From Nemertoderma westbladi (Eukaryota; Animalia; Xenacoelomorpha), in NCBI GenBank assembly GCA_032718475.1, contig JAUCBJ010001693.1, positions 1 through 64,000 of the forward strand: DNA of 64,000 nucleotides, read 5' to 3'. Positions within the stretch are counted from its first letter, which is position 1. Each line of letters opens with the position of its first letter. The notes under the pieces are model-generated. The model worked only from the letters and a program-made list of their open reading frames with translations. It did no database searches and was not told where the DNA came from. Both the position numbers and the translations under genes were made by a program. Below are positions 1,633 to 63,710 of this stretch, one piece after another.

Positions 1633-2080
1633 TAAAACAACAACAATAACGGATGAGTGAGTTAAACCGATAAGAAATAATTTATTCTGATTCAATGAAT
1701 TACATTTAGTCTTACTCTATTCATGTAGGGTTTTCAATGTTAAAACAGATTTGAATTTACCGCCAAAATATAGGTGGCAGATCTGATCTGCCACCCTTTT
1801 TAGTACAGTACTGCAGTAGTACAAAAGTAGTAACTTAGTAACTGAAGCAGAAGTAACTGAAGTAAGTAGTAACTGAAAGTAGTACTTTCAATCATTTGAA
1901 TTTCCCGCGCTATGAAGCAGGGTGGCACCTTTTAGGGACTTGTTTGCCAATTGCTAATGTCTGAATGTTTACCAGCGTAGGCCATACCACAGTTATGTAC
2001 GGGTACGGTTGACGGTATTAGGCCTATCTTACAGTCTTAAATGCAGAAATGCAAATGTGTTGTAAAATCTTACCGTAGCT

Positions 2081-3847: not shown

Positions 3848-4066
3848 ACCGTAGCTAACGCATAACGGTGTCGTTGGTGTCAGACATCCAGTAGTGCCAG
3901 AAACCATTACCGGTACGGTACACAGTACCGGTACCGGTACCGGTAGACCCACATACTGACATAGTGAGATAATACTGTAGTACGCGGACCCGGAATACTG
4001 GAATACAGCAGTACCGGTGCCCTGTACATTACTACATCAGTCGCTGGTCGGGCAATTAACAGATTA

Positions 4067-14800: not shown

Positions 14801-14951
14801 AAAGTAGTGTATCCCACTCCCGCTGATAGAATCCAGTCTCCCACACTGTGGGTCATACGCCGCGCTAGACTGGCTTCTACTGTGTTCACATTTAGTATGG
14901 ACTGTCAGGCATTATAAGACACATAAATTAGCAGGTTAAACTGCGCGAACA
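11842..14951 (+). mobile_element. Putative solo/orphan LTR of a divergent BEL/Pao-like family, expanded by an internal minisatellite
   Basis: Begins TGTAA and ends gcgcgaaCA (compare TGTAA...gcgcgtaCA of the LTRs at 51319 and 62356). The last ~550 bp share many colinear motifs with those LTRs. No TSD was found and the left end is tentative. Confidence 0.55.
11966..14375. repeat. 29-bp minisatellite, ~83 copies, with higher-order structure
   Basis: Unit gttgttgctacaacatctcgtctggacgt. The variant series recurs at 406 bp, i.e. 14 units (e.g. 12708 and 13114). Confidence 0.97.
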
Positions 14952-37900: not shown

Positions 37901-40900
37901 CGTCTCATCCTCAGATCCTACAGAATAGCTGTTAGCAGTACCGGACCTGGTGGTAGGCCTAAATATTGACGATCTGTACCCTCTCGAAAATTTGAATGAG
38001 CAAGATGACGCGATGTTTTCGGAGCTACTGACTCAGAAATCTTAGGATGATATATATCTGAATGCGTGGGCGGCATTAATAGAGTATTATCGTCGTAAGT
38101 AAACAACGATAACGCTGCTGATATTTTTTTCAAATAAAATAATATATTCGATATAAAAACATTACGGAAAACACTATTTTCCACTCATTTTCTTTAGCAA
38201 TATTCAGTTATTCTAACCTCGTGTGGACAGAATCGTTGTATTTCGCTAAATTGAAAATGAGTGAAAAAAGCGGTGTTTTCCGCTTACTTTTTTTTTTATC
38301 GAAAAATAGTCCTATATACTGACACCTCATTATACCAAGCGTCGCTTTGGTTGATCAACCTGTTCAACAACTTGTGCTATGGCAACAATTATAGCGATTT
38401 TATCCAATAGGAACCGACCTCTGGTTTAGACTCATCCACTGCCCTTCAACTTATGACCACCCTCAAGCGGTTCACACGCGAATCGGGGAAAACTGTTATA
38501 ACCAGTATCCATCAGCCTTCAAGTCAAATATTCGAGGTTGGTAGTTTTTCTATGTAACCCTTATTTACCCTTCAATTTTACACTTAAATATTTGAGTTGG
38601 GTAGTTTATACTATTTGGAGGCAGACACGTTCAAGTGTTATGGAGACATCAGCGAACGAGGATTATCCGTTTGTGTTGACTTTGATTTGTGTGTCCGTTT
38701 GTCTAATTGAGTAAGTCCAGTGGTAAGGCAACCCCGACAGTATAGTAAACCAGTAACAAACTGTATTAATGTATATCAAGGCGTCTTTTAATACTTTATT
38801 AAAGGACGCCTTGTCCTTTAATATAGGCCAGGTTCCACCTTGGTGTAGTGGTTGTATTGAATTCACATCTCCCGTAGGTCGTGGGTTCGATCCTCACATG
38901 GGCCAGGGCAGTTTTCGTTTCGGCACGAATGCTTTAAAGGGACCAGCCAGGCGCATCTCTCTGCCTTGCATCCTTAACCATTTAACGCCCATTGCACCTT
39001 AAATGGAACATGGTATATAGAGAGATATGGGCGGTTGCTGCTTTGAAAGAAACGTGATTTTTTTTTATATGAGTAAATTACATGTCAATTTCAAAACTGG
39101 AAATTGCCTGTTGAAAAGTGGTATTTTTGAAAAATTTAGGTGTCTTTTTGAATCTTAAAATTATGAGATGTGGGGTAGTCAAAAATTTTCCAAAATTAGC
39201 TTTCCTGTTGGCCTGAATGCTATGTTAATCTTTTTTTATCAGTTTCAGCTTTCAAATTGTTATTTAACAATGTTTAATACAGCAGTAAAGTGAAATGTTC
39301 CATTTAAGGTGCGTTGGGACTTCAAACTCTTTTTTTTACATTTTTTGAAAATTGCTTCATTTACTAACAGTTATAATTACTGTATAATTATGTTGCTATT
39401 ACGCATCATTTTATCTCGTTTAGCTGTCATACAGTCCACATTCTAGACCTGACTCGAATAAATTGCATTTCCTTGACCTGATTTTGATAAACTTTGTAAA
39501 AATGTGTGACACTCCTCGGGGTGGGCCACGATCTTACGCTCCCGATCTCAGTGAGGCCATGTCCTGTCCAGGTTTGCTGGGTGGTGGGGACAGGAAGAGC
39601 GGAGGTTGATGTCCTCTCGGGTTACTCTGCAGATGTGGACAGGGAGGTTAGGGCAGAATCTAGGTGTGTGTTGGCTGGTTGGTGGCCAAGGATGAGGGAA
39701 ACAAGGGGTCCAGCCTGGCAAACGGCGTCTACATTTGCAGCTGGTGCATGGTCAGTTGCCTTGTGCAGGCCTAGACCCCCCATAGCGGTTGGAAGGCATG
39801 CCTTGTTGTATGACCAGTCAGAGAGCGAACCTCCGACCAGGTCAGAAAAGGAGTCACGCATGATGAGGTCGAATTCCAAGGAATACTGCACTACCTGAGA
39901 TGGAGGGCAACAGCGCAGGGCGTAGATGACCTTGTGGTAAGCAGGAGCGGAGGAGGGCAGTTTACATCTGTGAGTCCTGCAGGTCTGGCAGGCATGCAAT
40001 TATGGCACGGACCTTTATTGATCCGTCCCATAACAGTATAAGGATCAGCATCAGTATATCAGAACAGCAGTACTTTTGTGCACAATCTACTTATTGATAC
40101 AAAAGTCGATAACTTGATAGGCCTAGTCTATGTAGTTTATATACTATACCTATAGGACTATAAACGGAACTCGATAAACCGAAAGTAAATCTGACAGAAC
40201 ATCCCGGTTTACATCATCTGATAAATGGCTACTGGAACCTATCTTAACAACAGTAACTTTTTTCCAGTTAGTTTATATCAGTAAGTACAGTATATCAGTG
40301 TTACACCTGCTTATCCATACTGTAGCTGAATAGCCTAACTAATTGCAGTAGCTTCTGAAAAATCAATGCCAGGGTCCTATATAATTTATGTAAGAACTTA
40401 TAAAGTTCTGAAAAGAGAATGCCTTTCCAACATTTAGAAAAAAATATGTGCTCTAATGCCCAACGCACCTTAAATGGAACATAGCTGTAACTTCTGAACA
40501 AACACTTTTTTTGCAAAAGTGTAAATGTAAAGTTTTTTTATTGGGCCATTTTGAGTTAGTTTCCAAAATATGAAACATTTTTGACATGGGGAAGTAGGTG
40601 TGGGCGTTAAACGGATAAGTGGTAGCTAAATGAGTACTGGAGTTTCCTCTGGGGAGTAAAGTTCTGGGGGGGGGGGGCCGCACTGGAAATAAGTCGTCAG
40701 ACTTTGTGCGTAATACCTGGCCTAGCGGCCGAAGAAAATTTACTTTACTTTACTTTATTTTGTCCAATACCATAACAGCTGTAATACTGGGCTGGCAGTG
40801 TGTGATCTAAATGTTTCAGTTCAGTACATTTTATTTGTTCCAGATGTTCGATAAACTGTTGTTGCTTAGCAATGGACAAGTGGCTTACTATGGACCCGGT

Positions 40901-41826
40901 GCAGAAATTATTGACTTCTTTAAAGATGTTGGTGTTCCTTGTAAAACCAATTACAATCCCGCCGACTTTATTAGTAAGTTTATTGAAAACATAACTCCCT
41001 TTTTTTGTACCCATACCCAGCAGCCAGTAAACTCTATTCAGTCGACACCAAACAGTGCGCTCCAGGCAACAGGAATGTCTGCGGGTTCCTTTGCTAACTG
41101 GACTCGACTACAACCTGGACAAGTTCATATCGGAGGTTGGTGGCAAGTGAACCCAATAGCGGTCGCTTCCATCACAACGCTCCGCTTGTGTATCCTCCAT
41201 AGTGTTCCAGATGAAAACATGAATATCTTTCCATTTTGCTTGTTTTTATACTGTGTAACTGTATTCTATCTATGAAACCGGGCCCACACACTGCCACTGA
41301 TGGATTATTTTCCTCAGCGTTTAGAAACGGTAAAGTTTGTGGAATAAGAAATAAATAAATTATAAAATGCTATGCAATAAATCTACTAAGTTCATACTTT
41401 GCAATTTGTAGTGGAACAACTACGAGAATCTAAAGAGGTAGAAACCACTATTGTTGAGGGTTTCAATAAGATTCGGGAGAAGGACCCGGAGCTAAAACTA
41501 CCGTCAGAAGGCGACGAGAATGTGAAAGTCGCTGTACTTCCAGAGGATAACACGGTTAGTGGGAAACTATTCAAGTGCAATGGACCCGTTTAGTGTTTGT
41601 ATAGGTATAGCAGGTATTGTTTGTTACACAAAATGTATTTACTATAATGTTGACTGTATTTACGTGTGTCTTTTATTTAGTAAATATTATTTTTTAATGA
41701 TAGGAACATAAATGGAAGGAATCGAAATGGCCGACTTCGTTTTGGACACAGTATTCAACCCTCACCAAGAGAGCGTTCAAACAGAATATCAAAGTTATTC
41801 TTGATAAATTCAATATTATTCAACAG
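16869..41826 (+). CDS. ABCG: ABC transporter subfamily G half-transporter, 5' part (11 exons; NBD and linker; continues beyond the window)
   Basis: join(16869-16976,18784-18825,20394-20533,20960-21096,22730-22902,24632-24737,32612-32712,38411-38536,40844-40973,41412-41554,41704-41826). All introns are GT-AG with compatible phases. Encodes Walker A, Q-loop, signature, Walker B, H-loop, NPADF and KWPTSFWTQ. Confidence 0.93.
17228..17851. repeat. Foldback (~290-bp arms) with tRNA-like outer ends
   Basis: 17228-17519 is the near-perfect reverse complement of 17582-17851. The ends carry A box TAGCTGAATGG and B box GTTCGATCC. Confidence 0.85.
18784..18825 (+). CDS. ABCG probable small exon 2
   Basis: ccag|GACCAA...CGTCAG|gtgagt, 42 nt, phase 0-0, [14 protein letters not shown]. 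Confidence 0.55.
19162..20120. repeat. 47-56-bp minisatellite (~19 copies) containing a donor-like AAG|GTAATT
   Basis: Unit gctgtggacaaggtaattaattagggtccggataatagggagagacaccca (51 bp) plus length variants. Confidence 0.95.
20394..20533 (+). CDS. ABCG exon 3
   Basis: ttag|ATTATT...GCTAATAG|gtaagt. Open frame [10 protein letters not shown]...[16 protein letters not shown]. Phase-2 end matches the next exon. Confidence 0.75.
20960..21096 (+). CDS. ABCG exon 4 (start of NBD)
   Basis: ttcag|[37 protein letters not shown]|gtaagt. Confidence 0.95.
21075..21566. repeat. 28-bp tandem array of the exon-4 end plus 5' splice site (~17 copies; degenerate copies also at 22626-22680)
   Basis: Unit gtaagtatttgggttatgggaccaagtg. 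Confidence 0.95.
21624..22617. mobile_element. hAT-type MITE
   Basis: TIRs caggcccgtagccag / ctggctacggcactg and 8-bp TSD attccaac (21616-21623, 22618-22625). Confidence 0.8.
22730..22902 (+). CDS. ABCG exon 5 (Walker A, Q-loop)
   Basis: cctag|GT GCC GGT AAG ACG gives [13 protein letters not shown]...[20 protein letters not shown]|gtaaga. Confidence 0.97.
23137..24335. mobile_element. Non-autonomous MULE-like element with an internal 53-bp tandem array (23515-24095)
   Basis: TIR cores gtaaaacgcggatcc / ggatccgcgttttac and 9-bp TSD gtgattttt (23128-23136, 24336-24344). The internal repeat contains the TIR motif atccgcgttttacac. Confidence 0.85.
24632..24737 (+). CDS. ABCG exon 6
   Basis: cttag|[36 protein letters not shown]|gtaagt. 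Confidence 0.95.
24688..32541. repeat. 56-bp tandem array of the exon-6 end plus 5' splice site (~140 copies, ~7.85 kb)
   Basis: Unit gtaagttgttaactgtatcatcgatagcttggatctgggtctctgtagaaacacaa. The first copy is coding sequence. Confidence 0.99.
32612..32712 (+). CDS. ABCG exon 7 (signature, Walker B)
   Basis: ttcag|..[33 protein letters not shown]|gtgagt. Confidence 0.97.
32906..38314. mobile_element. Non-autonomous DNA element with ~270-bp imperfect TIRs enclosing a satellite and nested elements
   Basis: taggactattattcgataaaaaaaaagtaagcg... is the reverse complement of ...cgcttacttttttttttatcgaaaaatagtccta. Subterminal hairpin at 32985-33092. Confidence 0.75.
33799..36845. repeat. 24-bp minisatellite, ~120 copies, two alleles (G/T at one position)
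   Basis: Unit taactatt[g/t]acatacttgttgcaa. Degenerates after 36690 into a hairpin at 36833-36971. Confidence 0.99.
38411..38536 (+). CDS. ABCG exon 8 (D-loop, H-loop)
   Basis: atag|[42 protein letters not shown]|gttggt. Confidence 0.97.
38832..38915 (+). mobile_element. tRNA-derived SINE-like head
   Basis: A box TGGTGTAGTGG and B box GGTTCGATCC, with no intact cloverleaf. Confidence 0.5.
38988..39318. mobile_element. MITE (a further terminus copy lies at ~40459)
   Basis: TIRs cccattgcaccttaaatggaaca / tgttccatttaaggtgcgttggg. Confidence 0.65.
39505..40000 (-). mobile_element. Fragment of an RLE-type (CRE-like) non-LTR retrotransposon
   Basis: [12 protein letters not shown]....LVG..LSD.SY.KACLP..MGGLGL..A.DHAPAA, a post-RT thumb motif. 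GC-richer than the flanks. Confidence 0.7.
40844..40973 (+). CDS. ABCG exon 9
   Basis: ccag|[44 protein letters not shown]|gtaagt. Confidence 0.97.
41412..41554 (+). CDS. ABCG exon 10 (linker)
   Basis: gtag|[19 protein letters not shown]...VLPEDNT|gttagt; phases fit. Confidence 0.85.
41704..41826 (+). CDS. ABCG exon 11 (pre-TM1)
   Basis: atag|[41 protein letters not shown]|gtaagt. Confidence 0.93.
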
Positions 41827-41910
41827 GTAAGTCACTTCTCCAGACAATCTCTGCAAAACGTAACACCTTCTTATCTTTATTTTAATTACCAATGAATAAC
41901 AAATTATATA

Positions 41911-45559: not shown

Positions 45560-45860
45560 CTGGATATAGGGAATATGGAATGAAAATAATCCCGTTAACA
45601 GAATAAATACGCCTTTAATTTTTACAGGTATTGAAAATCACCCACCTAAATTATGTTGTATATTACATCCAATCAAGAACCTTTAATATAATTTAACCAA
45701 TGGACAACAGATTCTAGAATTTAATCTTCATATTATATAAATAACAAAAACGTCGATAAAACTTGTCATACGCAAAACACTAATGATTTAAGTTGCACAA
45801 AGTTTTATTAGGATAAATAAATAATAGAAACAGTACTGGTGATTAGGTTCCATTGCTGTG

Positions 45861-46277
45861 ATGGCTTACAATGAGAGTGAAAATGGCGTGTTGGGTGAGG
45901 ATGAGTTACTGAGTTGGGCCTTAGAGGAAGATAGAAAGAAGGATATTGTGAGTAGATCAACCAGCAGAAAAGATATGGAGAAACGGAGACGAAAGAAACG
46001 GAAGGGAAGTAAGAAGGGAAAGAAGAAGGGAAAGAAGAGCAGGTCTAGGAGTCGCCGAGGTAAAGGAAGTCGGTCTAGAAGTCGTAGAGGAAAGGGGAAG
46101 AAAGGAAAGAAGATGAAGGGAAGATCGAAAAGTCGGGGGAAGAAAGGAGTAGGGAAGTCTCGATCAAGGGGCCTTGGAAGAAGAGCCGATGGGAAAAGTC
46201 TTGCCAGTCAGGGAAAACTTGATCCTTGCAGCAAGTTTATGAAGAAGTTGGCAAAAGAGGATATGAAACTGAACTAA
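45861..46277 (+). CDS. Protamine-like / sperm nuclear basic protein candidate, copy 1 (138 aa, intronless)
   Basis: Acidic ~27-aa leader, then a K/R/S/G-rich body with SRSRSRRGKG repeats. CCAAT x2 and TATAAA upstream (45669-45742); AATAAA near 46486. Confidence 0.7.
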   Translation: MAYNESENGVLGEDELLSWALEEDRKKDIVSRSTSRKDMEKRRRKKRKGSKKGKKKGKKSRSRSRRGKGSRSRSRRGKGKKGKKMKGRSKSRGKKGVGKSRSRGLGRRADGKSLASQGKLDPCSKFMKKLAKEDMKLN

Positions 46278-46333
46278 TTAATCCTGTAAACTGATATTTT
46301 CCTGCCTCGCGGTCAACTATTTTATTGATAAAG

Positions 46334-46407
46334 CGTTACTAATAATATATTATTTAATGAATTAAGATTTTAATCTTAATTCATTAAATAATATATTCTT
46401 AGTAACG
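46334..46407. repeat. Near-perfect 74-bp AT-rich hairpin 3' of the protamine-like gene
   Basis: cgttactaataatatattatttaatgaattaagatt-tt-aatcttaattcattaaataatatattcttagtaacg. Confidence 0.85.
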
Positions 46408-47119: not shown

Positions 47120-50100
47120 CCGACCACGACGGAATGCCGTACCAATCGGTGAGCGGGTGAATTGACGTCATTCGCCTACCGTACCGACCAGGGGCGGACC
47201 CAAGGTTATTGGACATGGACACGGACATGTATCAATGTGGAACTCTGCGCCCCCGGTCCCAAATGCGCCCGTGGCCCCCGCCGCGGCCTCGAATGCGCCC
47301 GTGGCCCCCGCCGTGGCCCCGAATGCGCCCGTGGCCCCCGCCGCGGCCCCGAATGCGCCCGTGGCCCCTGCCGCGGCCCCGAATGCGCCCGTGGCCCCCG
47401 TCACGGCCCCGAATGCGCCCGTGGCCCCCGCCGCGGCCCCGAATGCGCCTGTGGCCCACGCCGCGGCCCCTAATGCGCCCGTGGCCCACGCCGCGGCCCC
47501 GAATGCGCCCATGGCCCCCGCCGCGGCCCCGAATGCGCCCGTGGCCCCCGCCGCGTCCCCGAATGCGCCCGTGGCCCCCGCCACGGCCCCGAATGCGCGC
47601 GTGGCCATTTCATGTAAAGGTTGCAGGAAAGTTTACCGTTACCCAGCTAGCCTTACAAAGCATCAGATTTTGTGTCCGCGGTTCAAAGCTGCTGATAACT
47701 TAGAACTGCTGTCACAGCTCCCTTTTTCCTTGCCAAATACACTGCCAAAAATAGGTGCTGATGCGAACAGCTTATCATTCATATCCTGGAACGTGGAGGG
47801 AGCAGAGACCACATTGGACACGACCATCGATGAAACTTTTACCAACACAGACGTTCTGTTACTCACTGAGACTTTTATGGAAGACCTCGTTATTGATGGG
47901 TATGCTTGCTACAATGTCCCTTGTGAAAAACAAGACCATGGCCGTCCAACGGGTGGTCTAACCATAGGAATCAACTCTCGGCTATCATTCGTGCATAAAT
48001 GTTTATTCTCTAGCCCGTCAATAATAGCCGTGCAATGCCCGAATTTCCATATTATTTTAGCTTATTTTAAACCTGTGACCGATGTAACCGAGATACTATT
48101 GGAGCTCAACGACGTGGTACAGTTGGTGTTGTTTAAAGCAAACATTCCCGTGATTTTAGCTGGCGATTTTAATTGCCGGATAGATGGCGACAGTACGCGT
48201 GGTGATCTGTTATGTGACTCTCTATTGGGTCTCAATCTCGTATCAATCTCAGACCCTAAATTGCCGACTTATATCTGTTGGAATGGAACTAGTGTTATCG
48301 ATCTTGTGTTTGCCAGTACCAATATCTTAGATTATATCAACACCGCAGTAATACATACAATCAATACTAAACACCAGCGCGTCAATATCAATCTATCAAT
48401 GGAACATATTAATTCTGTTGGAATTGGAACACGAGATAAACGCCCTGAGACAATCCGTAACATCGATACGGACAAACTAGGTGAATTACTCGACCCGGAA
48501 ATCTTTGCAAATGCATTGGCTGACAGTGTCGATTCGGCATGCAAACATGTATCCGATGCAATTACTCAGTCTGCAATAAACCGCCCACAAAGGAAATCAA
48601 AGCCATGGTTTAACAAATCCTGTTATAATCTTATGTCCCAGGTTAAACAACATCGTAGTTTAATAAACAGCGACTCATCGGATACCCAACTGGAAGCATA
48701 CAGAACCATTCAGAAGGAATATAAATCAACTATGAAAGCGAATAAAAAGTTATACTCAATACGGCGTGAGTCGAATATAATTAAACGTTGTGAATCAGAC
48801 CAAAAGGAATTCTGGAACATATTGAAAACTCGGAAAGAAACATCAGTGTCCCACCAGGTGACTAATGAGAGCTGGTTCAACCATTTCACATCTCTGCTTA
48901 CAAGACCAAATCCACCTCAGCTTCCTGAAGTCGATAATAACTATGAAGATTACCTTGATACCACAATAACGGGGGAAGAAGTAACTGCAGCTGTAGCAAG
49001 CCAGAAGTCGGGAAAGGCTGCTGGCCCAGACGGTATCACTAATGATATACTGAAAAAAGGGTTCGGCCATCTGTTCCCTTTTCTGTTCGCGTTATTCGCT
49101 GTATGCTTCTCGAAAGCAACCTGCCCTATAGCATGGCTAACCTCAATAATTATTCCATTGTATAAGGGAAAAGGCCCAAAGTCTTCGCCGGATGCATACC
49201 GCGGGATCGCACTGTTATCTTGTTTATTTAAAACGTATACCTCAATCCTATTCAAACGGTTATATACATGGGCCGAGACATATAATAAACTTCCAGACGA
49301 ACAGTATGGTTTCCGTACTGGCCGATCCACATTAGACGCTGTACGCAAATTATACAGTTACATATCTAACTCATTGCCATCGGGTAGTCCAGTGTATTGT
49401 GTCTTTGTGGATTTCACAAAGGCATTCGACTCTGTTAACAGGGTCAAATTAGCCTATAAATTATCCAAACTTGGAGTAAGTCGAATATTTATCTCAGCAA
49501 TATGGGCTTTAATAGCTACAAACTGCATTCGCATTTGTGTAGGATTGTATCTATCAGACCCAATTTTTCAGATGATCGGTGTAATACAAGGTGACAAGTT
49601 GTCGCCGCTACTTTTTAGCTTGTTCATTGCTGACCTGCCTCTAGTTCTGACCGGTATTGGTATTGGTCTACTCCTTTATGCCGATGACCTAGCTATCTAT
49701 GGAAATTCGATTAATTCGGTGCAAAAAACTTTAGACAAACTCTACAAATATTGTGATGAAAATGACTTACATGTAAATTTGTCCAAAACTAAGGTAGTGA
49801 AGTTCCGCCGTGGTGGACGCTTGTCAAAGCAAGATAAACTTTTTTATAACAACAAATCATTGGAATTTATTAACAATTTTAATTACTTAGGAGTAGTGTT
49901 TACAACTACAAACAAATCATCAGGCCATTACAAACACTTATATAAACGTGGTGTTGCCTCGTGCATGCGACTAGCCTGCATAGTTGATATGCATTCGATA
50001 TCGTACCCCTCTGCTCAAAAATTATGGTCCCTGGTGGTGTTTCCCGCTGTTACCTACGGCATATCTGTATTCCAGAACTTAACAAAGGAACAACAGAAAC

Positions 50101-50703
50101 AATTAGAACACGTAATAAAGGTGCGCGGTTTTTTCTGGAAAATTTGGTGTGGAGTAGCGAAATATGCGTCCACTACAAAGATTTTAGAAGCTGTTGATAA
50201 CCCAAACAGCACATCAATCTCATTGGCCAACTTAGCTGGGAACAGGCGCCGCATAGCGGCACAGTTCCTATCTAATGGGTTTCACCACAAAGTCTGCCAA
50301 GAGGGGAGATGCTGGAGACCAAAAGATAAATGTGTCTGTCGTCTCTGTAAAGAGCCAGCAAAAGATGTTGCCCACACTTTGGTTTGTGAAGCTATACCAA
50401 ATCCCCAAACCCCACTGGAACTTGCCTTTTACCTGCAAAAGCTCGATTGACCATTTTACCGACATTTTATGTGCATTAATTTTTACCAAATTTAACTTAG
50501 CCAAAATATATAATAAAATATTAACTAAATGGTATTTATTTCTAACATAGTATATTTTATGCGTGTACTGATTAATTTGTATATTAGTGCTAAAAATTAT
50601 GTCCTCAATTAACTGTATGTATTATTTTATATTTATTGTGTATTTTATTAATATCTATATCCTCTTACGTCCAATCTGGATATTACACGTCTTATGAATT
50701 ATC
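47120..50703 (+). mobile_element. Apparently full-length single-ORF LINE (APE-RT), intact
   Basis: 11-bp TSD gattctagaat (47109-47119, 50704-50714). The empty site is present in the paralogous unit at 45710-45720. No poly-A tail. Confidence 0.95.
47235..50450 (+). CDS. LINE polyprotein: Ala/Pro repeat, C2HC finger, APE endonuclease, reverse transcriptase, Cys-rich C-terminus (1071 aa)
   Basis: SWNVEG, LTET, GDFN, SVIDL (APE); [32 protein letters not shown] (RT); CKGC-x12-H-x3-C; terminal CVCRLC..H...C. Confidence 0.95.
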
Positions 50704-50855
50704 GATTCTAGAATTTAATCTTCATATTATATAAATAACAAAAACGTCGATAAAACTTGTCATACGCAAAACACTAATGATTAAAGTTGCAACAAATTTT
50801 TATTAGGATAAATAAATAATAGAAACAGTACTGGTGATTAGGTTCCAGTGCTGTG

Positions 50856-51224
50856 ATGGCTTACAATGAGAGTGAAAATGGCGCGTTGGGTGAGGATGAG
50901 TTACTGAGTTGGGCCTTAGAGGAAGATAGAAAGAAGGATATTGTGAGTAGATCAACCAGCAGGAAATATATGGCGAAACGGAGACGAAAGAAACGGAAGG
51001 GAAGTAAGAAGGGAAAGAAGAGCAGGTCTAGGAGTCGCCGAGGTAAAGGAAGTCGGTCTAGAAGTCGTAGAGGAAAGGGGAAAAAAGGAAAGACGATGAA
51101 GGGAAGATCGAAAAGTCGGGGGAAGAAAGGAGTAGGGAAGTCCCGATCAAGGGGCCTTGGAAGAAGAGCCGATGGGAAAAGTCTTGCCTGTCAGGGAAAA
51201 CTTGACCTTGCAGCAAGTTTATGA
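50856..51224 (+). pseudogene. Protamine-like gene, copy 2 (probably disabled)
   Basis: Near-identical to copy 1, but with a 12-bp deletion, a 1-nt deletion near the end (cttgaccttg vs cttgatccttg), a LINE in the promoter and an LTR element in the 3' flank. Confidence 0.65.
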
Positions 51225-51318
51225 AGAAGTTGGTAAAGGAGGAGATGAAACAGAACTACTATCTGAAAAAAAAATTTGTTGATTTGTTGAACTAATTAAT
51301 CCTGTAAACTGATATTTT

Positions 51319-52589
51319 TGTAAAATCTTCTGTGGGATATAACTGGCCCCTTTTGCTTCGCAATCCAGTTTCCCCCCAGGCGCTGGAATACTCTAAAAGG
51401 CTCTCTAACTATATATATATTCCCCTCGCCCGTAAGGTACCGTTATAGGTGTTTTAACGGACATAAAAGTCATTCTTCTATATACGTGTTTTGGCGGACA
51501 TGGTAAGGCAAAAAACCTGCAATGCACCAAATACCTTTACACAGCTTAGCCTTGATGATTCAGATTACGACATCTAACAGCTGGTTGCTGACATGGAAAC
51601 GGCCATTGGACACATGGTTCTTTGTTTAGCTTAAGCCAATCAGAGCGATTTTTTCTGTCGATGTGGAGCTTTTCGGCCGATCATACTAGGAGTGTTCAGT
51701 CTTACTGTTTTTGTGATACTGTTGTGTTGTTGCTATCTAGGCCAGGAACACCGGCTCTAGAGTCAACTCGTTTTCATACTTTAGAAGAAACATTAGTAGG
51801 CTTAAGATTATAGAGCGTATAACTGTTATCAGTTCAGTCCAGTCCATATCATATATCACATATCATAACTTGTCATATCATATCTTGACCTACCGTCTTA
51901 ATGTTTTACTGTTGTCATATTTTGTATTAGTTGGTTGAATATTATTTGGAGAACATTTATAAAGAACCCAAATTTCCCAATTTTCTTGATACACTACAGG
52001 TTAGAGAGACGGGTTATATATAGCGATTGCGACTTATATTATTGTGGTTTGTAGTGAATTTAATGCTATTTGATAAGCACTACATGAATCCGTTGCTGTT
52101 CTCTTTATATATGATAAAATTCATTGACGGTCGGCAAATTAGTGAGCAGTATTGTGTGTTACCGGTAGTGTGCATGATTGTGACTGATAACTAAGCATTT
52201 CCTAAAGAATGCGCCTCATACGTGAATCATAAGCCTTACCGACTTACCGTTGTGATTAGTATAAGTCATATCTCTGTTTACCTAGATAGAGCGCCACGTC
52301 CTAAAGGAACTGTTAATATTTCCCGAAAGTGAATAATATTAGTCAGAAATTATTTATTAACGATCAATCGAATAATACAGTAAGCTTACACTGCAATAAT
52401 AATCTAAGCCCTCAGAATCCAGTCTCCCGGGTATATCCAGCGGGTGAATGGACGCGCACTAGGCTGGCTTCTGCTAATGTTGTGTTTATTGGTATTAAAT
52501 ATTTGTCAACTTCTAAAGTCTATTTGTAAACCAAAAGACATATAAATTTTGGCAGGTTAAACTGCTAAAGGTCTTCAAAAGCGCGTACA
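51319..52589 (+). repeat. 5' LTR
   Basis: Direct repeat of 62356-63626; I could see only ~4 substitutions. Confidence 0.97.
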
Positions 52590-54834
52590 ATAACAGTTAT
52601 AGTCTTTATTGCAGTAAGCAATAAAGTTGAAAGTACCGGTCGACCGGTAAACCTGAACCGGTACTTCTGTAGGTCAGTAGGCCCAACTGCCAGAACCGGT
52701 ACTGCTGTAGGTCCGTAGGTCCAACTGCCAGAACCGGTACTTCTGTAGGTCTGTAGGCCCAACCATCCTAACCGGTACTTCCAGTATAAGTACATTAGTA
52801 TTATTCGATTTTGATTATTGTATACCGGTAGGTCTCGATATTAAATCGGGGACGCCTGGTTTTTATTGGGATTTTACTTAGGTCCATTTCTGTCAGTTTT
52901 ATTTCCTAGTAAGTTAATATTGAGCTGAAGACGTGTAAGTCTGCTCAGATTGTTCAGATAACTGTAGGCCGGACTGTTGTCGGATTGTTGTTGGGTTTGG
53001 AGAGATTACTGCGTGTGTAGAGTTTGTCCGATAGAGTGCCAGTTAGTAAGTTGGGGCAGCCATAGCTGTAAGGTCAATCCCCTCTTAAAGAATAAGTCGT
53101 ACTACCGTGTTAGAACGCATACTAACTAACCATTTTGGAATCTGCACATACTGTAGTTTATTTAGGCTTGACAGTATTCTGCCAGCGTTTTGGCCTGTGT
53201 TTGTTTGTGTGGTCTGTTCAGGTACCGTAATAGTTATTACTCAGATATTTTGTAGGCTGGATTGTTGTCTAGCTATTATTAGGTCTGAAGAGATTGCTGC
53301 GTGTGTAGAGTTTGTCTGATAAAGTGCCAGTTAGTAAGTTGGGGCAGCCATAGCTGTAAGGTCAATCCCCTCTTAAAGAATAAGTCGTACTACCGTGTTA
53401 GAACGCATACTAACTAACCATTTTGGAATCTGCACATACTGTAGTTTATTTAGGCTTGGTGGTAGTCTGCCAGCGTTTGGTTTGTATTTTGTTTGAGTAG
53501 TCTGTACACGTAGCGTAATATTTATTATTCAGAGTTTATGCGATTATTCGCAACATTCATGTCCCCAAGTTTATTCCTACAGTAATTGTGCTTGTTACAC
53601 ATACCGTTATAGTTAAATTAACCCCGGTACTACACGGGCTGCTTGGCGTAGGAAAAGACTGGTGACTTTGTGCTTCGGTCACTCCAGCAGATGCCGTGGT
53701 TCTTTTAACTGTTCAAGTATATTTAACTACTGATTATTTGTTGTACCAGTACTTGTACCTAATTTAGGGTTTAGTGTACAGTGCTTTCCGAAAGTAATTA
53801 GTGTGTAGGCAGTATATTTGTGTTGTAAAGTGGTTAATAGGCACGTTGGATCTGGTAGTCCGCGGTAATTAACTTCTAGGTAGGAACACTCCGTGATACA
53901 TAACGTAGTACCTATAGCGATACGGCTATAGGTCGTCAGGCGGTGGTATTTTCCTATCTGGACAGTGCAATATATTTACTACTACTTATTATTTTCAAAT
54001 ACCGTAGTACCCTGTCCGTTGTAATAACCAGAAATCTAACCCTTTGTTAGACTGGTTTGTAGACTTCCTGTAAAATTACCCTAAAAATTTCGTACGTAAT
54101 ATTTTGTTGTGTTTAATTAGAGATTTAATCTCACCCATATCGTAAGTAATTTGTAGTATTAAGTAACTTAGGTAAATTAGAATTATCTGTTTTAGTGTCC
54201 CATAAGTAGCACTTCACTGAGAGCGCACAGCTTCTGTGTAGTGACTTCCCCAGAAATAATAACATCTATTTCAATATTGTAACAAAAACCCTTTTTAACG
54301 GGTATATATCTATTATAAATCAACTCAAACGATTTATAAATAGTAGGCCTGCCATACAACAACTAGGTCTCAATATCAGTTGGACTACTGCTTAAATAAC
54401 GGTAATAAAGTAAGTTAAAGTAACCAAGTAACCCTAAAATATTCAGAAATTCAATTATTCTAAAATAATTGACATACCGGTATTTACCATAGGCTTATTA
54501 TATTTATTTCTATAAATTTGTGCTGAAATCATACCGGTATTCTGTAATTAATTCTAGTCTGTAATAATTATACTTATATATACTATAAGTGTCAGCTGTA
54601 TACCGGTATTCACGATAGGCCTATTATATATTTATATATATTTGTGCTAAAATTATATACCGGTACTCTGTGACAAATCTAGTCTGTAATAATACTTATA
54701 TATATACTATAAGTGTATACCGGTATTCTAATATACTGTAATAAATTACCGGTACTAGGCCAACGGTCATACTGAATTACTAGACTTGCTTTAACTGTAT
54801 TTATAGCCGTAGGCATTCAACTGTGTAAACAAAC

Positions 54835-57800
54835 ATGTCAGACGCAACCAAATCACTGTCAGATAGTCTCTTAGAAAGTGTTAGAATGAGTATTAGACAT
54901 AGGCAGCGTATTAAAAGGATCTGTGACCAAGATCCAAGTATAGAACATCCTAGATCCAAGTCTAAGTCACCTACTATTGTAAGAAAGGCCATCCCTACAG
55001 TAGTAGTGTCAGACCCTAGGCTAGTAGAACAGCGTAGGTCTATCATCGGCACTCGGGCCCAAGTCAAGCGGGATCAAGAAGCAGCTATCAAACAGCAGCA
55101 ACCTCCTAGCCAAAAACCTAGTTCTCAGCAGCCCGATAGCTCCAGTAGTTTGGATACTGTTGAGCGGACACCCGAACGCGGAGAGAAGATGGCGGATACG
55201 GTTTATGATGAGCGGCCAACCTATGAAGAATCAACCGACGCCACTTCTTCTCAAGTGGAAAGCGAAGTGGAAAGCGAAGTGGAAAGCGAATTAACAGCAG
55301 CAGAGAAGCCGCGAACTAGAGACGCCATTGACATATATCTGTCAGACTATCAGCGATTCCTAGGAGACGAAGAGTTGAGGAGACGACTGTCTGGACTTCG
55401 CCCTAATAGTGAAGGAACCAAGCTTGTGTTGGACGCAATCGATGCGGAAATGTTAGCTGCGAACCAAACTAAATTCGATGAACAACTCCGCATCACTAGA
55501 GTCCAAGAAGAACAAGTAAAGAAAAAAGCGATAGAAGACAGAAAGAAAGCGGCAGTGGCAGCAGCAGCGGCAAAGGCGGCAGCGGAAGAGGCAAAAGCGG
55601 CAGTGGCAGTGGAAGTGGCAGCAGCAGTGGCAAAAGCGGCAGCGGCAGTGGAAGCAGCAAAAGCAGCAGCAGCAATAGCATTGGCAGAAGCAGAACAGAG
55701 AGCGTCTGAAGAGACCACCCAACTGGAGTTGGAAAATCTTCAAGAGACGCAAGACTGCATAAATAAACAGTTAACTGCTAATCAAATGCAGATGATGAGT
55801 CGATCTACTCCCAAACGCCAAGGATACACATCATCGGAGGAAGGCGAAACCACCGATCCTGAAGGCGGAGGAAATAGATCTCGTCTAAGCAGGCGTAGAA
55901 AAGCATCTCACCGTCACAAATTGCCTGATTTGCCCCCAGCTGTTAGAAGACAACTAGCTAACACAGACTTAGGTAGTTCAGAACCCACAGACCAAATTGT
56001 TAAGGTCAAAAGACTCCCTACGATACTCGATGAGTCTGAAATAATTAGGCCTGTCGTTCCCAAAGCCACTCCTGTGCTAGAGACCCCTGTACTTACAGAG
56101 CTTAACTCTAAATTCCCTTTACACAGTACTACACTGCCTGTACCCGGTAGAACAGTCCATGAGAATATCCCTGTCCTGGACGCTGAGAGAGAAATCAAAG
56201 ATTTGTCTCCCGTCGTCCCGCGTCTGCCCGCTACAATGTTGGCGACTCCCGCTTCGGCGGTCGAGTGGGTAGAGGAGGGACGGCGGGGGATGAATCTCCT
56301 GCTCGGACAGATGCAGGAGACTGTCCACCAACTCAAGGGAACATTAAGGGAAAGTAGGGTAGAATTGCAAGAAGTGCAGCAAAGTATCGCGCTAGAACGC
56401 GACAAATTAGTCAATATACAAAAGGGTATACCAATACCCCCTGTAACATTGTGTCAACCTGTTAGGTCTGAAGTATTACATGCGCAAGGTGTGGAGCCTA
56501 CACGCATCTATACTGCTAGTGAAGTAGAAACTCCTATAGCAAACCCTATTAAGGGTGATTATGAACCTGTTGTTAATGATATTCCCTATAGACCTGATAA
56601 TAATCCGAGAAATTTATATACCGATAATTCGATATTAAATAATACGATGGCCCAAGAAAGCTTTACGCGTCAGATGGCTAGAACAGAAGCCCGCCAAGCG
56701 GTCAAAGTGGGAGAAATCGTCAAATTCAATGGAGATGAGATGAAATGGTTACCTTTCAATGAATATTACAAAGATAGCATACAGAACTCTGTACTATCTA
56801 ACGGAGAGAAACTTAGGTTCCTCATCAAGTGCTTAGAAGGACCTCCCAAGTTAATGGCGTTAAAGTTTATTGGACATCCAGAAGGATTAAGACAAGTTTG
56901 GGATACATTAAACATCAGGTATGGTAACAAGGATAACATAGCTAAGTATTTGTATGCAAAATTAGTAGCCCCCCGAAACTTCCTTAGTAGCGGGATTATA
57001 GAGTTTTCCGATGAGATTCAGGAGATCTGTAGACAATTGGACTGGTTAGGTAAGTCTCATGAATATCAGAGTTCCATGGTTATTGGAGCAGTAGTCTCTA
57101 CTTTACCAAAGGGTGGAGTATGTACACGCTGGGACAAGAAAGTGTTGTACATGAATGAACAACAACGACGAAGCCCTACCATGGCTGATCTCATGTCCTT
57201 TTTAGATAGTAAAGTAAAATTACAACTCATAAAGCAGTCCAGAGAGAAAACATCGGAAAATAAGGTAAGTGAGAAACCCGTTTCTAGGAGAAGGATAATA
57301 CCAGTGTGTTATACTGACGACGGCGAAAGCCAAGCTTCTCAAGAAGAGGACAGCGGGAAAGACACAGCAAAATCTTACTATGACAACAAGACCTATAAAG
57401 ACGTAAGTAAATACAAGTCTCGAACCAGTAACAGGAGAGAACAGGTAACAACAACTCCTCCTACGTCTCCTAAGAGAATTCACGGAAGAAAGCCCGAAGA
57501 AAGAACGAGAGTGCATAACGTTACCCAAGGTAAAGTGAGTAACATCAAACCAAAATGTGCGCTGTGCGACGGGCCCCACCGTTTGAGTGCGTGTGCTGAA
57601 TTTCTAAAGAAATCCCTTGTAGACAGACGTACAGTCCTGTGGAATAAGCGGTTATGCTATAATTGCCTCAGATCAGGACACCAACGGCGAACCTGTTACT
57701 CCGACGTAAAGTGTGCAAAGTGTGGCGCGAAACATCACATCTTGTTACACAGTGAGTTCGAACGAAACAACCCGAGTCAGGTAAGTGAGCCCGAACTACA

Positions 57801-58989
57801 TGTCCAGTTCAGTGATGTAAATGACACTGATCAAGAATCTGAGATGGAAGGATTCTATACTGACGAATTCTCCGACGCCAACGAATCCTGTTACTTAATA
57901 AATACCGCAGTGTATCGAGCACTTACGCATGAAAAGGACACCGAAAATGAGTTCCCCCCAACTACCTTTGACAGACAACCATCTTGGAAAGCTCCAACTT
58001 CCAATGTAGGAATCAGAGAATTTCCTGTAGTGCAGGTAAGAGTTCACGGTCCTAACAACAGTTACATAGTGAACGCCCTCCTTGACTCCGGCAGCACAGG
58101 AACATTCATCGATCAAGAACTAGCCAAAGATATCTTTGCTGGACAACCCAAATTCCGGACTAAATTGAATATATCAGGAATTATGCAGGTTTGGAAATCT
58201 ACCCTAACGGCAGACTACTATGTAGGTGTGTTGTCCACCCCCCAGGATAAGTTAGGAGCACAAGGTATAAGGTCGGTAAAAATGGTGGCTATAAAGAACT
58301 TCGCTACTACTCAAGCAGACCTTTATAATTGGGACGAGGATGAGAGCATCCAACATCTTAAGATACCTCGATTCCAGACAGATTATCCTGGAGTGCAAAT
58401 ACTCATCGGCCAAAACGCGCATGAAGCGCTCGAGACATTGGAGAAATGGCCTGCTCAACCGCAGCCATTACAAACCTATGCGGTAAGAACTAGAGTAGGT
58501 TGGTACTTCACTGGCCCTTCCCGTAGAACTCTCAAAGAGAGATTACCTCAACAACAGGTATACCAAGTAAAGGAATGGGAAGTGGAGAGCAGTGATGTGG
58601 ACGATCCAACTGAGGGAACACCATACTCCTCAGATAATGACGATATTAACTCCAATGTAGATCAATGGAGACATTGCCTTGGGACGATTAATCCAGCCGA
58701 CATCGCTTCCAGAGGAGCAACTCCTCAAAAACTGATAGATACTCCAGGCTGGTTAGGTGGATCCGACTTCTTAAGTAAAGAAGAAGAAGAATGGCCTCCT
58801 CATCTTACCCCGGCGGAGATTAGACAGGCCAAGGGAGCGGAGAAAGTAACACAACAACTCAATCGCCCAGCTAGTCGTTTATGTTTACTGGAAAGAGACC
58901 AAAAACTGTCCGGAAACTATGGAAGGCAAGATACTCTTCCTACGACCACTTCCCTAATCCGACAAATATCTAGGGACTCCATAACGTAA
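54835..58989 (+). CDS. BEL/Pao Gag-protease fused to an RNase H C-terminal remnant (1384 aa); RT and integrase absent
   Basis: KFNGDEMKW..F (DUF1759-like); CALCDGPH..C, CYNCLRSGH..C and CAKCGAKHHILLH; ALLDSGS protease; then directly QWRHCLGTINPADIASRG..W.GG.DFL...EEWP. Confidence 0.92.
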   Translation: MSDATKSLSDSLLESVRMSIRHRQRIKRICDQDPSIEHPRSKSKSPTIVRKAIPTVVVSDPRLVEQRRSIIGTRAQVKRDQEAAIKQQQPPSQKPSSQQPDSSSSLDTVERTPERGEKMADTVYDERPTYEESTDATSSQVESEVESEVESELTAAEKPRTRDAIDIYLSDYQRFLGDEELRRRLSGLRPNSEGTKLVLDAIDAEMLAANQTKFDEQLRITRVQEEQVKKKAIEDRKKAAVAAAAAKAAAEEAKAAVAVEVAAAVAKAAAAVEAAKAAAAIALAEAEQRASEETTQLELENLQETQDCINKQLTANQMQMMSRSTPKRQGYTSSEEGETTDPEGGGNRSRLSRRRKASHRHKLPDLPPAVRRQLANTDLGSSEPTDQIVKVKRLPTILDESEIIRPVVPKATPVLETPVLTELNSKFPLHSTTLPVPGRTVHENIPVLDAEREIKDLSPVVPRLPATMLATPASAVEWVEEGRRGMNLLLGQMQETVHQLKGTLRESRVELQEVQQSIALERDKLVNIQKGIPIPPVTLCQPVRSEVLHAQGVEPTRIYTASEVETPIANPIKGDYEPVVNDIPYRPDNNPRNLYTDNSILNNTMAQESFTRQMARTEARQAVKVGEIVKFNGDEMKWLPFNEYYKDSIQNSVLSNGEKLRFLIKCLEGPPKLMALKFIGHPEGLRQVWDTLNIRYGNKDNIAKYLYAKLVAPRNFLSSGIIEFSDEIQEICRQLDWLGKSHEYQSSMVIGAVVSTLPKGGVCTRWDKKVLYMNEQQRRSPTMADLMSFLDSKVKLQLIKQSREKTSENKVSEKPVSRRRIIPVCYTDDGESQASQEEDSGKDTAKSYYDNKTYKDVSKYKSRTSNRREQVTTTPPTSPKRIHGRKPEERTRVHNVTQGKVSNIKPKCALCDGPHRLSACAEFLKKSLVDRRTVLWNKRLCYNCLRSGHQRRTCYSDVKCAKCGAKHHILLHSEFERNNPSQVSEPELHVQFSDVNDTDQESEMEGFYTDEFSDANESCYLINTAVYRALTHEKDTENEFPPTTFDRQPSWKAPTSNVGIREFPVVQVRVHGPNNSYIVNALLDSGSTGTFIDQELAKDIFAGQPKFRTKLNISGIMQVWKSTLTADYYVGVLSTPQDKLGAQGIRSVKMVAIKNFATTQADLYNWDEDESIQHLKIPRFQTDYPGVQILIGQNAHEALETLEKWPAQPQPLQTYAVRTRVGWYFTGPSRRTLKERLPQQQVYQVKEWEVESSDVDDPTEGTPYSSDNDDINSNVDQWRHCLGTINPADIASRGATPQKLIDTPGWLGGSDFLSKEEEEWPPHLTPAEIRQAKGAEKVTQQLNRPASRLCLLERDQKLSGNYGRQDTLPTTTSLIRQISRDSIT

Positions 58990-60818: not shown

Positions 60819-62277
60819 ATGGCAGATATGACGGAGTTGATAGAAGATGATCTTGGTATCAGGGAGCGATATACTCTACCTTTACAAGCATTTGTGGATA
60901 GCTTGATACGCGATGAAGCCGATCCAACCATTACGGAGGACGGTGGTCGTTGTATCGAACCGCCGATGTCCCAAGAGCAACTTACGCGTGAATTGGACTG
61001 TCGGGAGTTCGCCGCTCGCTATACGCATCGTGATGGTACGTATATGGACTTCCTAACTACCGGCCATCCTATCGATTTACCTGATACGGACGATGTAGAC
61101 ACCGAAAGGGAAATGGTTCTATTTAAATATCATACCCAGCGGAGTCGTAACGATAAACCGAAAATAGATCACGAAAATTCTATTCGTAACAGACTGGGAA
61201 GACGAACCAATATGCCTAGAATCTGAGGAGATTCAGCCTATCGCGCCCGGAACAGCGACAACGATTACATCCTAGAATGGTATCAAGGTCCACAGTGTCT
61301 CACTGCGTACGATTATCGCCATGCCAACTATGTTTCTCGGCAACGTTGTCGGTTATGCGCATCGAGAGACCATGTTACGCCCATGGACACAAACGTCCGT
61401 TGTTCCTATTTCCACGAACAACCGGCGATGGAAATTTATTGCGCGTATTGCAGGCTCAATAACTTGCACATTTTTGCAGTTTGCCCTCAATTTATGACTC
61501 AATGGCAACATTGTCAACTAAAGGGACGCGCCAGTTTCGATTGCCCTTTTTAATCACGATTTGGAAAGCCTAGATGAAATGATCACACTACGTTACATCA
61601 GAGCTTGGGAAGCGAACGCTGATTTACATTGTGATTCGCGCCATCGCTATTATCCTGGACGCGCTTACGAAGGAGTTTATGCGTTCCATCCTTATCTATT
61701 CGCTTCGGTTGAACAGAAATCACGCATATCAAGTTACGAGCTACTGAAGCGCGTCGGAGAATGTATTTCAACCAAATTCGTACGCAAATTTCTCAGGAGT
61801 GTTAATCCTAGCGACCTTCATTCCTATAACTTAATCAATTATATCCGTCAGGATCCGGACTATGGAGACTTGTTTGTTAACTCACACCCCGAGTTACAGG
61901 AAGTATATCGACGGCCTTACGAATACCGAGCCCGCGAACGCGAGTTGGAAAGAACCATTAAACCCTGGAGGTTTCTAACTGCCTATGGTCCACCCACGGC
62001 CCTCGTTCAGACCACTCGTAAAGGACCCGTAAGAGCGGCTGTCTTGAAACGAGCTCTCAAAGCCGTTAGAACCCTCTCACCTGACGTTGATGTCAATCAA
62101 CCCGGTACTTCGACTGGCAGATACACCGACCATAATCCTACACCCTCTGATGCAATCATATTGCACCCTTCACCCAGGAGTTATAGCCCTCCTTGTAAAG
62201 TGGCTCGCCCCAAAGAGAAAAGGACTCTGGCTAGCTTTAAAAAACTGCGTAAACGCCGTCCGCGCAAGAAAGACTAA
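60819..62277 (+). pseudogene. Accessory ORF of the LTR element (~485 aa ancestral), Zn-finger protein, disrupted
   Basis: The frame of 60819 continues through one TGA (61224-61226) into CRLC..H..C..CAYC..H..AVCP..C.LKG. A 1-nt frameshift at the T run (~61547-61551) then joins ORF 61561-62277. Basic C-terminal tail. Confidence 0.8.
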
Positions 62278-62355: not shown

Positions 62356-63626
62356 TGTAAAAGCTTCTGTGGGATATAACTGGCCCCTTTTGCTTCGCAA
62401 TCCAGTTTCCCCCCAGGCGCTGGAATACTCTAAAAGGCTCTCTAACTATATATATATTCCCCTCGCCCGCAAGGTACCGTTATAGGTGTTTTAACGGACA
62501 TAAAAGTCATTCTTCTATATACGTGTTTTGGCGGACATGGTAAGGCAAAAAACCTGCAATGCACCAAATACCTTTACACAGCTTAGCCTTGATGATTCAG
62601 ATTACGACATCTAACAGCTGGTTGCTGACATGGAAACGGCCATTGGACACATGGTTCTTTGTTTAGCTTAAGCCAATCAGAGCGATTTTTTCTGTTGATG
62701 TGGAGCTTTTCGGCCGATCATACTAGGAGTGTTCAGTCTTACTGTTTTTGTGATACTGTTGTGTTGTTGCTATCTAGGCCAGGAACACCGGCTCTAGAGT
62801 CAACTCGTTTTCATACTTTAGAAGAAACATTAGTAGGCTTAAGATTATAGAGCGTATAACTGTTATCAGTTCAGTCCAGTCCCTATCATATATCACATAT
62901 CATAACTTGTCATATCATATCTTGACCTACCGTCTTAATGTTTTACTGTTGTCATATTTTGTATTAGTTGGTTGAATATTATTTGGAGAACATTTATAAA
63001 GAACCCAAATTTCCCAATTTTCTTGATACACTACAGGTTAGAGAGACGGGTTATATATAGCGATTGCGACTTATATTATTGTGGTTTGTAGTGAATTTAA
63101 TGCTATTTGATAAGCACTACATGAATCCGTTGCTGTTCTCTTTATATATGATAAAATTCATTGACGGTCGGCAAATTAGTGAGCAGTATTGTGTGTTACC
63201 GGTAGTGTGCATGATTGTGACTGATAACTAAGCATTTCCTAAAGAATGCGCCTCATACGTGAATCATAAGCCTTACCGACTTACCGTTGTGATTAGTATA
63301 AGTCATATCTCTGTTTACCTAGATAGAGCGCCACGTCCTAAAGGAACTGTTAATATTTCCCGAAAGTGAATAATATTAGTCAGAAATTATTTATTAACGA
63401 TCAATCGAATAATACAGTAAGCTTACACTGCAATAATAATCTAAGCCCTCAGAATCCAGTCTCCCGGGTATATCCAGCGGGTGAATGGACGCGCACTAGG
63501 CTGGCTTCTGCTAATGTTGTGTTTATTGGTATTAAATATTTGTCAACTTCTAAAGTCTATTTGTAAACCAAAAGACATATAAATTTTGGCAGGTTAAACT
63601 GCTAAAGGTCTTCAAAAGCGCGTACA
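62356..63626 (+). repeat. 3' LTR
   Basis: Direct repeat of 51319-52589. Confidence 0.97.
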
Positions 63627-63710
63627 ATTTTCCTGCCTCGCGGTCAACTATTTTATCGATAAAGCGTTACTAAGAATATATTATTTAATGAATTAAGATT
63701 TTAATCTTAA

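Follow-up and report, generated by a model that had tools for sequence, protein, structure and literature searches.

Multi-helix cis-acting RNA near an LTR is known from the retroviral 5' leader and R/U5 region and from the HTLV-1 Rex and HIV-1 Rev response elements, and self-priming of the Tf1 type is reportedly the subject of the cited works of Lin and Levin (1997/1998). Belpaoviridae have LTRs of 0.2–1.2 kb and bind host tRNA-Arg or tRNA-Gly at an 18-nt site, and the replication of these BEL/Pao elements is poorly understood (PMC8742986). Host tRNA is the only priming given for the family (ICTV profile, PMC8742986). In the available passages of PMC3601003, BEL/Pao LTRs are not modelled, and residual conservation in long R regions is said to be able to reflect stem-loops. 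Tf1-type self-priming requires structured LTR RNA according to the available parts of PMC7175516 and PMC4600332, the first of which gives the Tf1 self-primer as 11 nt long; the available text of PMC6317226 takes 10-nt complementarity as the criterion for self-primers. We found neither self-priming nor a large structured LTR RNA described for BEL/Pao in the open-access literature. A term search of PMC3118150 returned no mention of primers, and the available portions of PMC6934838, PMC13524379 and bioRxiv 2025.09.22.674508 hold nothing on BEL/Pao self-priming or LTR RNA.

Here we describe a locus in a 64,000-nt window of Nemertoderma westbladi (contig JAUCBJ010001693.1, the whole stretch of DNA that was analysed). 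It contains an LTR retrotransposon, hereafter element B, which is a young non-autonomous BEL/Pao derivative with the following parts:

51319-52589, + strand: 5' LTR of element B, 1271 nt, TG...CA, paired with 62356-63626.
62356-63626, + strand: 3' LTR of element B, assigned from the LTR pair and target-site duplication; it includes a third copy of the domain described below.
54835-58989, + strand: single ORF for BEL/Pao Gag (DUF1759, zinc knuckles) and protease, from Pfam and homologue matches.
60819-62277, + strand: broken accessory ORF, with a stop near 61224 and a frame change near 61522-61553.

The two LTRs are 99.7% identical, their four differences all falling within the 5' half. They are flanked by the target-site duplication ATTTT (51314-51318 and 63627-63631), and a short purine run, GGGAGCGG, lies directly upstream of the 3' LTR. 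The Gag-protease ORF matches DUF1759 at E 3e-12; 40 of its 41 matches carry Pao peptidase or DUF1759, and all 41 carry at least one BEL/Pao-associated domain. Its product is fused to a Pol piece of about 50 residues, whose counterpart in full-length polyproteins lies several hundred residues downstream. Beyond this remnant, no match to RT or integrase was found in element B, and we therefore regard it as non-autonomous. Compared against the defining characters of BEL/Pao, element B has the Gag-protease homology and the paired LTRs with target-site duplication, and lacks the RT/RNase H/integrase content and the tRNA-Arg/Gly primer-binding site. A search of viral contigs found no relative of its Gag. 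The accessory ORF has a Cys/His-rich middle and a Lys/Arg-rich end; it matches no Pfam family at cut-off and weakly matches the ORF at 3968-5134 (pairwise E 7e-06). The 2.2-kb leader (52641-54760) holds 38-nt and 288-nt tandem repeats and many ACCGGT palindromes, and a length-variable 5-mer-like repeat occupies 51830-51890 of the LTR.

Several other features of the window were recorded alongside. Element B is inserted within the second of two direct repeats of about 650 nt (45710-46379, and 50704-51318 plus 63627-63710) that are about 95% alike and flank an endonuclease-RT ORF (47166-50450); it is unusual for a LINE-type ORF to be flanked by direct repeats of this length. Terminal inverted repeats of about 240 nt, 81% alike and flanked by a 7-bp direct repeat, mark 2080-3848 as a likely non-autonomous DNA transposon. 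Large satellites with units of 51, 28, 53, 56 (139 copies) and 24 nt (127 copies) span 19157-36845, and 40811-41900 contains ABCG-type transporter exons that match Pfam ABC2_membrane_7.

The original prediction concerned the 3' half of the element B LTR, where about a dozen colinear blocks were said to be kept, between unalignable spacers, at the ends of two highly divergent LTRs. The two copies of this domain are:

51974-52589, + strand: conserved, probably structured domain, copy B, delimited by homology, exact blocks, block pairing and contig depth.
14407-14951, + strand: conserved, probably structured domain, copy A, from a divergent family (nhmmer E 5.6e-30 against copy B).

The third copy, within the 3' LTR, is at 63011-63626. 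Homology between A and B is real. Their local alignment scores 351, compared with 117 ± 10.5 and a maximum of 153 for 300 dinucleotide shuffles, and they share eight exact matches of at least 10 nt, compared with a shuffle mean of 0.42 and a maximum of three (n = 300). Chained colinear exact blocks of at least 6 nt number 17 and total 166 nt, and blocks of 13–18 nt hold most of the identity; the longest (18 nt, 52362-52379) is mostly unpaired in the structure model. All of the blocks first named were found at their places and in the same order, whereas the spacers proved not to be wholly unalignable: 341 of 545 aligned columns (62.6%) are identical, in an alignment in which MAFFT misplaced two blocks. 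The description as two LTRs holds for copy B, the 3' half of a 1271-nt LTR. Copy A ends in GAACA at 14951, with CA at the place homologous to the end of B, but no partner LTR, target-site duplication or LTR start was found for it, and a 29-mer satellite (81 copies, 12028-14375) lies directly upstream, so that copy A is called an LTR end by homology. Nothing upstream of it resembles the 5' half of the element B LTR.

Pattern scans for outside homologues returned 6, 0 and 4 loci in viral contigs, 23 in metagenomes, and 0 and 0 in prokaryote genomes. None of these 33 loci matches past the seeded block (best E 0.006), and they were therefore dropped as chance. Around copy A itself, the satellite (11972-14375) sits where element B has its 5-mer-like repeat, and may be an expansion inside the LTR. 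A 9-nt match at 14473-14481, adjoining the first long conserved block of copy A, corresponds to 52589-52597, where the LTR of element B ends (one base) and its primer-binding site begins (8 nt); it may be chance. The ORF at 3968-5134 (+ strand) is intact and Cys/His-rich and may belong to another related element, which could be the body of copy A; an Atlas search with 4067-5134 gave zinc-knuckle leads only, with scores under 0.9.

Variation in the domain was followed in four public runs (X1, X3, X4 and X5), of which X4 is a guessed RNA run and the others are DNA contigs. The family is very abundant in all four, with 7905 contigs of X1 over 871 nt. Summed contig depth, which does not equal copy number, rises 10–20 fold from 51910-51939 to 51970-51999 in X1, X3 and X5; before 51973/51974, unlike sequence (loose ends) is reached by contigs of X1, X3 and X4. 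The depth step near 51970 and the unlike sequence upstream of 51974 bear out the 5' boundary first proposed; together they identify the domain as a module common to subfamilies with different upstream LTR parts. Among the 40 variants listed of 152 rows, all of them unphased, 37 fall in the domain, with four in the 166 nt of exact blocks and 33 in the 450 nt outside them (p = 0.021). Only two of the listed variants fall in modelled helices. One, 52348 A>G, restores C-G from a C.A mismatch, the one mismatch of copy B. For the other, 52472 T>G, loose ends of X4 and X5 put C at the partner position 52414, an apparent and unphased change from A-U to C-G. Two others, 52049 T>G and 52341 A>T, disrupt predicted pairs outside the counted helices. 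The 5' part of the element B LTR (51334-51668), which carries a TATATATA run at 51410, is also widely shared in these runs.

The domain probably forms a conserved structure in plus-strand RNA. The model contains the following elements:

52413-52473, + strand: strongest of the conserved helices, with 5 bp and 7 bp separated by one mismatch (A: 14827-14879).
52149-52378, + strand: central helix between 52149-52155 and 52372-52378, with a long irregular hairpin inside it.
52125-52508, + strand: long-range pairing 52125-52130/52503-52508 (A: 14559-14566/14900-14907), chosen by eye.
52552-52565, + strand: terminal hairpin GCAG-GTTAAA-CTGC, from folding, in both copies.

The helices named in the original prediction can form in A and in B, and the majority of paired positions are invariant. 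Among 46 pairs in eight hand-picked helices compared between these two families only, 37 are unchanged, six show one-sided changes, two are double changes and one is broken; the helices were chosen by eye, and two further candidates lie outside this count. Eight of the nine pairs that differ between A and B remain paired, and all six one-sided changes involve G.U on the plus strand. The helix at 52413-52473 contains a U-A/C-G double change. Within the central helix lie the CUAAA-loop cap (52195-52212) and helix 52270-52275/52345-52350, and the long irregular hairpin with the CUAAA loop is predicted for A and for B even though the letters that build it differ. Pairing 52125-52130/52503-52508, absent from folding-program predictions, is predicted to cross helix 52481-52486/52537-52542 as a pseudoknot or kissing loop. 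The terminal hairpin is invariant and thus uninformative for covariation. Pairing 52045-52052/52134-52141, outside the helix count, is the same in both copies and is hit by one family variant. A further pairing, 52452-52457/52581-52586, has 6 bp in B and overlaps the terminal hairpin in A, and was set aside as speculation; an exhaustive listing of stems common to both copies (102 plus, 50 minus) was dropped for its noise.

For the domain as a whole, the proposal of a large structured RNA finds moderate support in plus-strand block pairing and in variants that avoid the blocks. Conserved block-to-block pairing valid in both A and B sums to -77.7, compared with null means of -55.3 and -61.2, and is matched by 3 of 500 across-block and 13 of 500 within-block shuffles, with block edges partly set by eye; the minus-strand sum, -58.0, is at null level. 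RNAalifold gives z -1.62 on the plus strand, with the energy equalled in 5 of 60 column shuffles, and z -0.40 on the minus strand. Against the proposal, folding energy is ordinary, and neither copy beats its shuffles (z 0.04 with 20 shuffles and 0.70 with 100). Free folds of A and B agree in part only, and enforcing seven helices costs 15–17 kcal/mol.

These ordinary energies, the 62.6% overall identity, the 37 invariant pairs among 46 and the largely unpaired state of the longest block would all suit plain shared descent or exchange of an LTR half that carries protein-binding, promoter or poly(A) motifs and a few hairpins, with no large fold. We judge this explanation unlikely, since identity is concentrated in exact blocks of 13–18 nt, block pairing exceeds the null and does so on one strand only, the two copies are predicted to build an equivalent long hairpin from different letters, and family variants avoid the blocks.

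The position of the domain relative to the start of reverse transcription is defined by three further features:

52590-52601, + strand: position of the primer-binding site, without TGG, complementary to 51818-51829.
51818-51829, + strand: candidate self-primer, exact reverse complement of 52590-52601, followed by TCAGTT/TCAGTC.
52604-52626, + strand: perfect 9-bp hairpin directly after the primer-binding site, from folding.

No TGG follows the 5' LTR of element B, and the position was judged not to be a tRNA site; the 64-kb window contains no tRNA genes. Instead, the 12 nt after the 5' LTR (offset 0) are an exact complement of a segment inside the LTR, as was the case in 3 of 5000 Markov-resampled LTRs. 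Measured against a self-primer definition of at least 10 nt lying at most 5 nt from the 5' LTR, element B has 12 nt at offset 0. A gap of 760 nt separates the candidate primer from the site and is largely filled by the conserved domain. None of the 40 variants listed of 152 rows falls at 52590-52600; the first is at 52601, where a common variant would cut the primer match to 11 nt. At joints in the public runs, contigs keep the sequence to 51831 and then vary. Contig depth over the primer is about one-tenth of that over the site, and copy A has no primer site, so the complementarity holds for one element only. In six folding windows, the primer duplex is predicted in two (0.96 and 0.94; the others 0.20, 0, 0 and 0), and the hairpin at 52604-52626 has a pair probability of 0.91–0.99 in five and 0.35 in one. 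No U5-leader stem was stable across these windows, the site being followed by the 9-bp hairpin. Judged by these sequence features, the element B lineage appears to prime without tRNA.

Where the transcript begins bears on this proposal. TCAGTT at 51829, just after the candidate primer, is initiator-like, and we take it to fit the initiator consensus. As an initiator it would place the transcript start just downstream of the candidate primer, and it could mean a second, primer-less transcript, or that the primer is not the transcript 5' end. Two TATA-like runs, at 51410 and 51479, point to starts much further upstream. Alternative transcript starts regulate Tf2, according to the available part of PMC5341516.

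Our preferred reading, held tentatively and with somewhat less than even confidence, is that the domain is a large cis-acting RNA of a tRNA-independent BEL/Pao lineage that serves priming and packaging. By analogy with Tf1, the transcript would start at or near 51819, its first 11 nt would pair with the primer-binding site, and RNase H from an autonomous relative would cut near 51829/51830 to leave a 3'-OH. Reverse transcription would then copy the domain first, giving a TG end with no offset. In plus-strand RNA the multi-helix domain would lie between the predicted self-primer (51818-51829) and the site (52590-52601), where it may compact the 760 nt that separate them, and it may also give Gag and RT a handle for recognising the RNA. 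Such a handle could be the reason why families with unrelated upstream LTR parts, the RT-less one included, keep the domain; element B, having no RT or integrase, depends on cis signals. From position alone, we infer that the fold and priming are linked. Among the functions guessed at first, priming and packaging are supported directly, if circumstantially, by the tRNA-less, self-complementary site; for a ribozyme the support amounts to a loose likeness in topology. An IRES is unlikely because the gag ATG (54835) is 2.2 kb downstream.

The same interval has splice-like ends:

51997-52005, + strand: splice-donor-like CAG/GTTAGA (51999/52000); the copy A homologue is GAG/GTAAGC at 14433/14434.

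The donor at 51999/52000 is one of two donor-like matches in the element B LTR, and that at 14433/14434 is the sole one in 14378-14951; both fit AG/GTWAG and fall within the first block. An acceptor-like AG/G lies inside the terminal hairpin at 52555/52556 (A: 14934/14935), and the GT...AG ends are conserved in both copies. Because a donor at homologous places and GCAG/G in both copies bracket the domain, it may be a regulated LTR intron, running from 52000 to 52555 in B and from 14434 to 14934 in A, with a fold that controls splicing or nuclear export. The Rev and Rex response elements are the model: the target would be unspliced genomic RNA, and the basic accessory protein, whose ORF ends with a Lys/Arg-rich run, might bind the fold. 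An intron would be compatible with self-priming. We rank this possibility first among the alternatives, though as unlikely in itself. No 51999-52556 joint occurs among the joints listed (7; 15 of 21), drawn from DNA contigs and one guessed RNA run, and the acceptors have no pyrimidine tract. Furthermore, the primer complement runs uninterrupted in the DNA, a spliced junction would not pair with the primer site, and element B carries the accessory ORF in broken form. A strong donor-like site at 51502/51503, in the 5' part of the LTR, makes a second intron possible, running to CAG sites after the candidate primer.

Catalysis by the RNA itself offers another route to a priming 3'-OH. Group I introns are organised around P3/P7, a guanosine site and a terminal G. 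A large ribozyme could cut the transcript at the primer 3' end, or self-splice; its size, its invariant unpaired blocks, a predicted pseudoknot strand order loosely like group I P3/P7, and its place adjoining the duplex that needs cutting all speak for it, and an ordinary folding energy is compatible with tertiary-stabilised RNA. We nevertheless hold a ribozyme to be very unlikely, and equally improbable the specific case of a new class of large ribozyme that docks the primer/site duplex and cleaves it to free a 3'-OH primer. No Rfam match to group I, group II, RNase P/MRP or lariat-capping models was found to E 5, and no GACUA/UAGUC-type P7, terminal G or domain-V triad was seen; the Tf1 cut is made by RNase H, according to the available part of PMC7175516. 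More broadly, a search of the whole window with Rfam 15 covariance models gave 0 matches at gathering score, in agreement with the novelty first claimed. The best E values, 0.33 and 0.38 on two regions, belong to unrelated families that differ between A and B, and 6S, sR17, snoMBII-202 and lincRNA-p21 were rejected as minus-strand hits far below gathering and not common to both copies. Elsewhere in the window, 1216-1258 (+ strand) holds a minimal hammerhead-like core (CTGAGGA, CGAAA and a palindromic TGCGCA stem III, with a 5-bp stem I and short stem II, both of which fold). It has no Rfam match at gathering score and presumably resembles the hammerheads of Penelope-like elements.

LTR elements can also carry host RNA, as Cassandra elements carry 5S RNA. 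The length and block-like conservation of the domain are similar to those of host non-coding RNAs such as telomerase RNA, 7SK or RNase P/MRP, and Rfam models miss divergent invertebrate members. Capture of one of these or of another host RNA gene is still the least probable of the explanations considered: Rfam and tRNA searches yielded no match, neither a telomere template nor an H/ACA two-hairpin layout was seen in both copies, and the end of the domain is the exact end of the LTR.

If the preferred priming and packaging role is correct, this high-copy lineage would add a further retrotransposon family to those that self-prime, and it would supply a defined RNA, with variants already present in the host genome, for probing of structure and tests of cleavage. 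Priming without tRNA may be common, which leaves the large conserved domain as the more unusual feature.

Set beside known systems, element B is most like Belpaoviridae in its DUF1759 Gag, zinc knuckles, protease, TG...CA LTRs, 5-bp target-site duplication and purine run before the 3' LTR, and differs in having no tRNA-Arg/Gly site, RT or integrase. The likeness to group I introns is loose, in that a long-range helix crosses another and small terminal hairpins come after it, and no Rfam match, conserved core, guanosine site or terminal G was found. With the retroviral leader and the Rex/Rev response elements the domain shares its putative character as a multi-helix cis RNA, a nearby splice donor and a basic accessory protein; in contrast to R/U5 and Rex/Rev, it has no sequence likeness to them, is three times the usual U5 length, and its binding and splicing are putative. 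Tf1, Tf2 and Tj1, of the Tf1/sushi group (Ty3/gypsy), are like element B in having no tRNA site and in having 11–12 nt after the 5' LTR that are complementary to an LTR segment. Element B does not belong to that clade, as its proteins are not of the Ty3/gypsy type, and it differs from Tf1 in its BEL/Pao protein, in a predicted transcript start, and in a 760-nt gap between primer and site that holds a conserved domain of about 600 nt.
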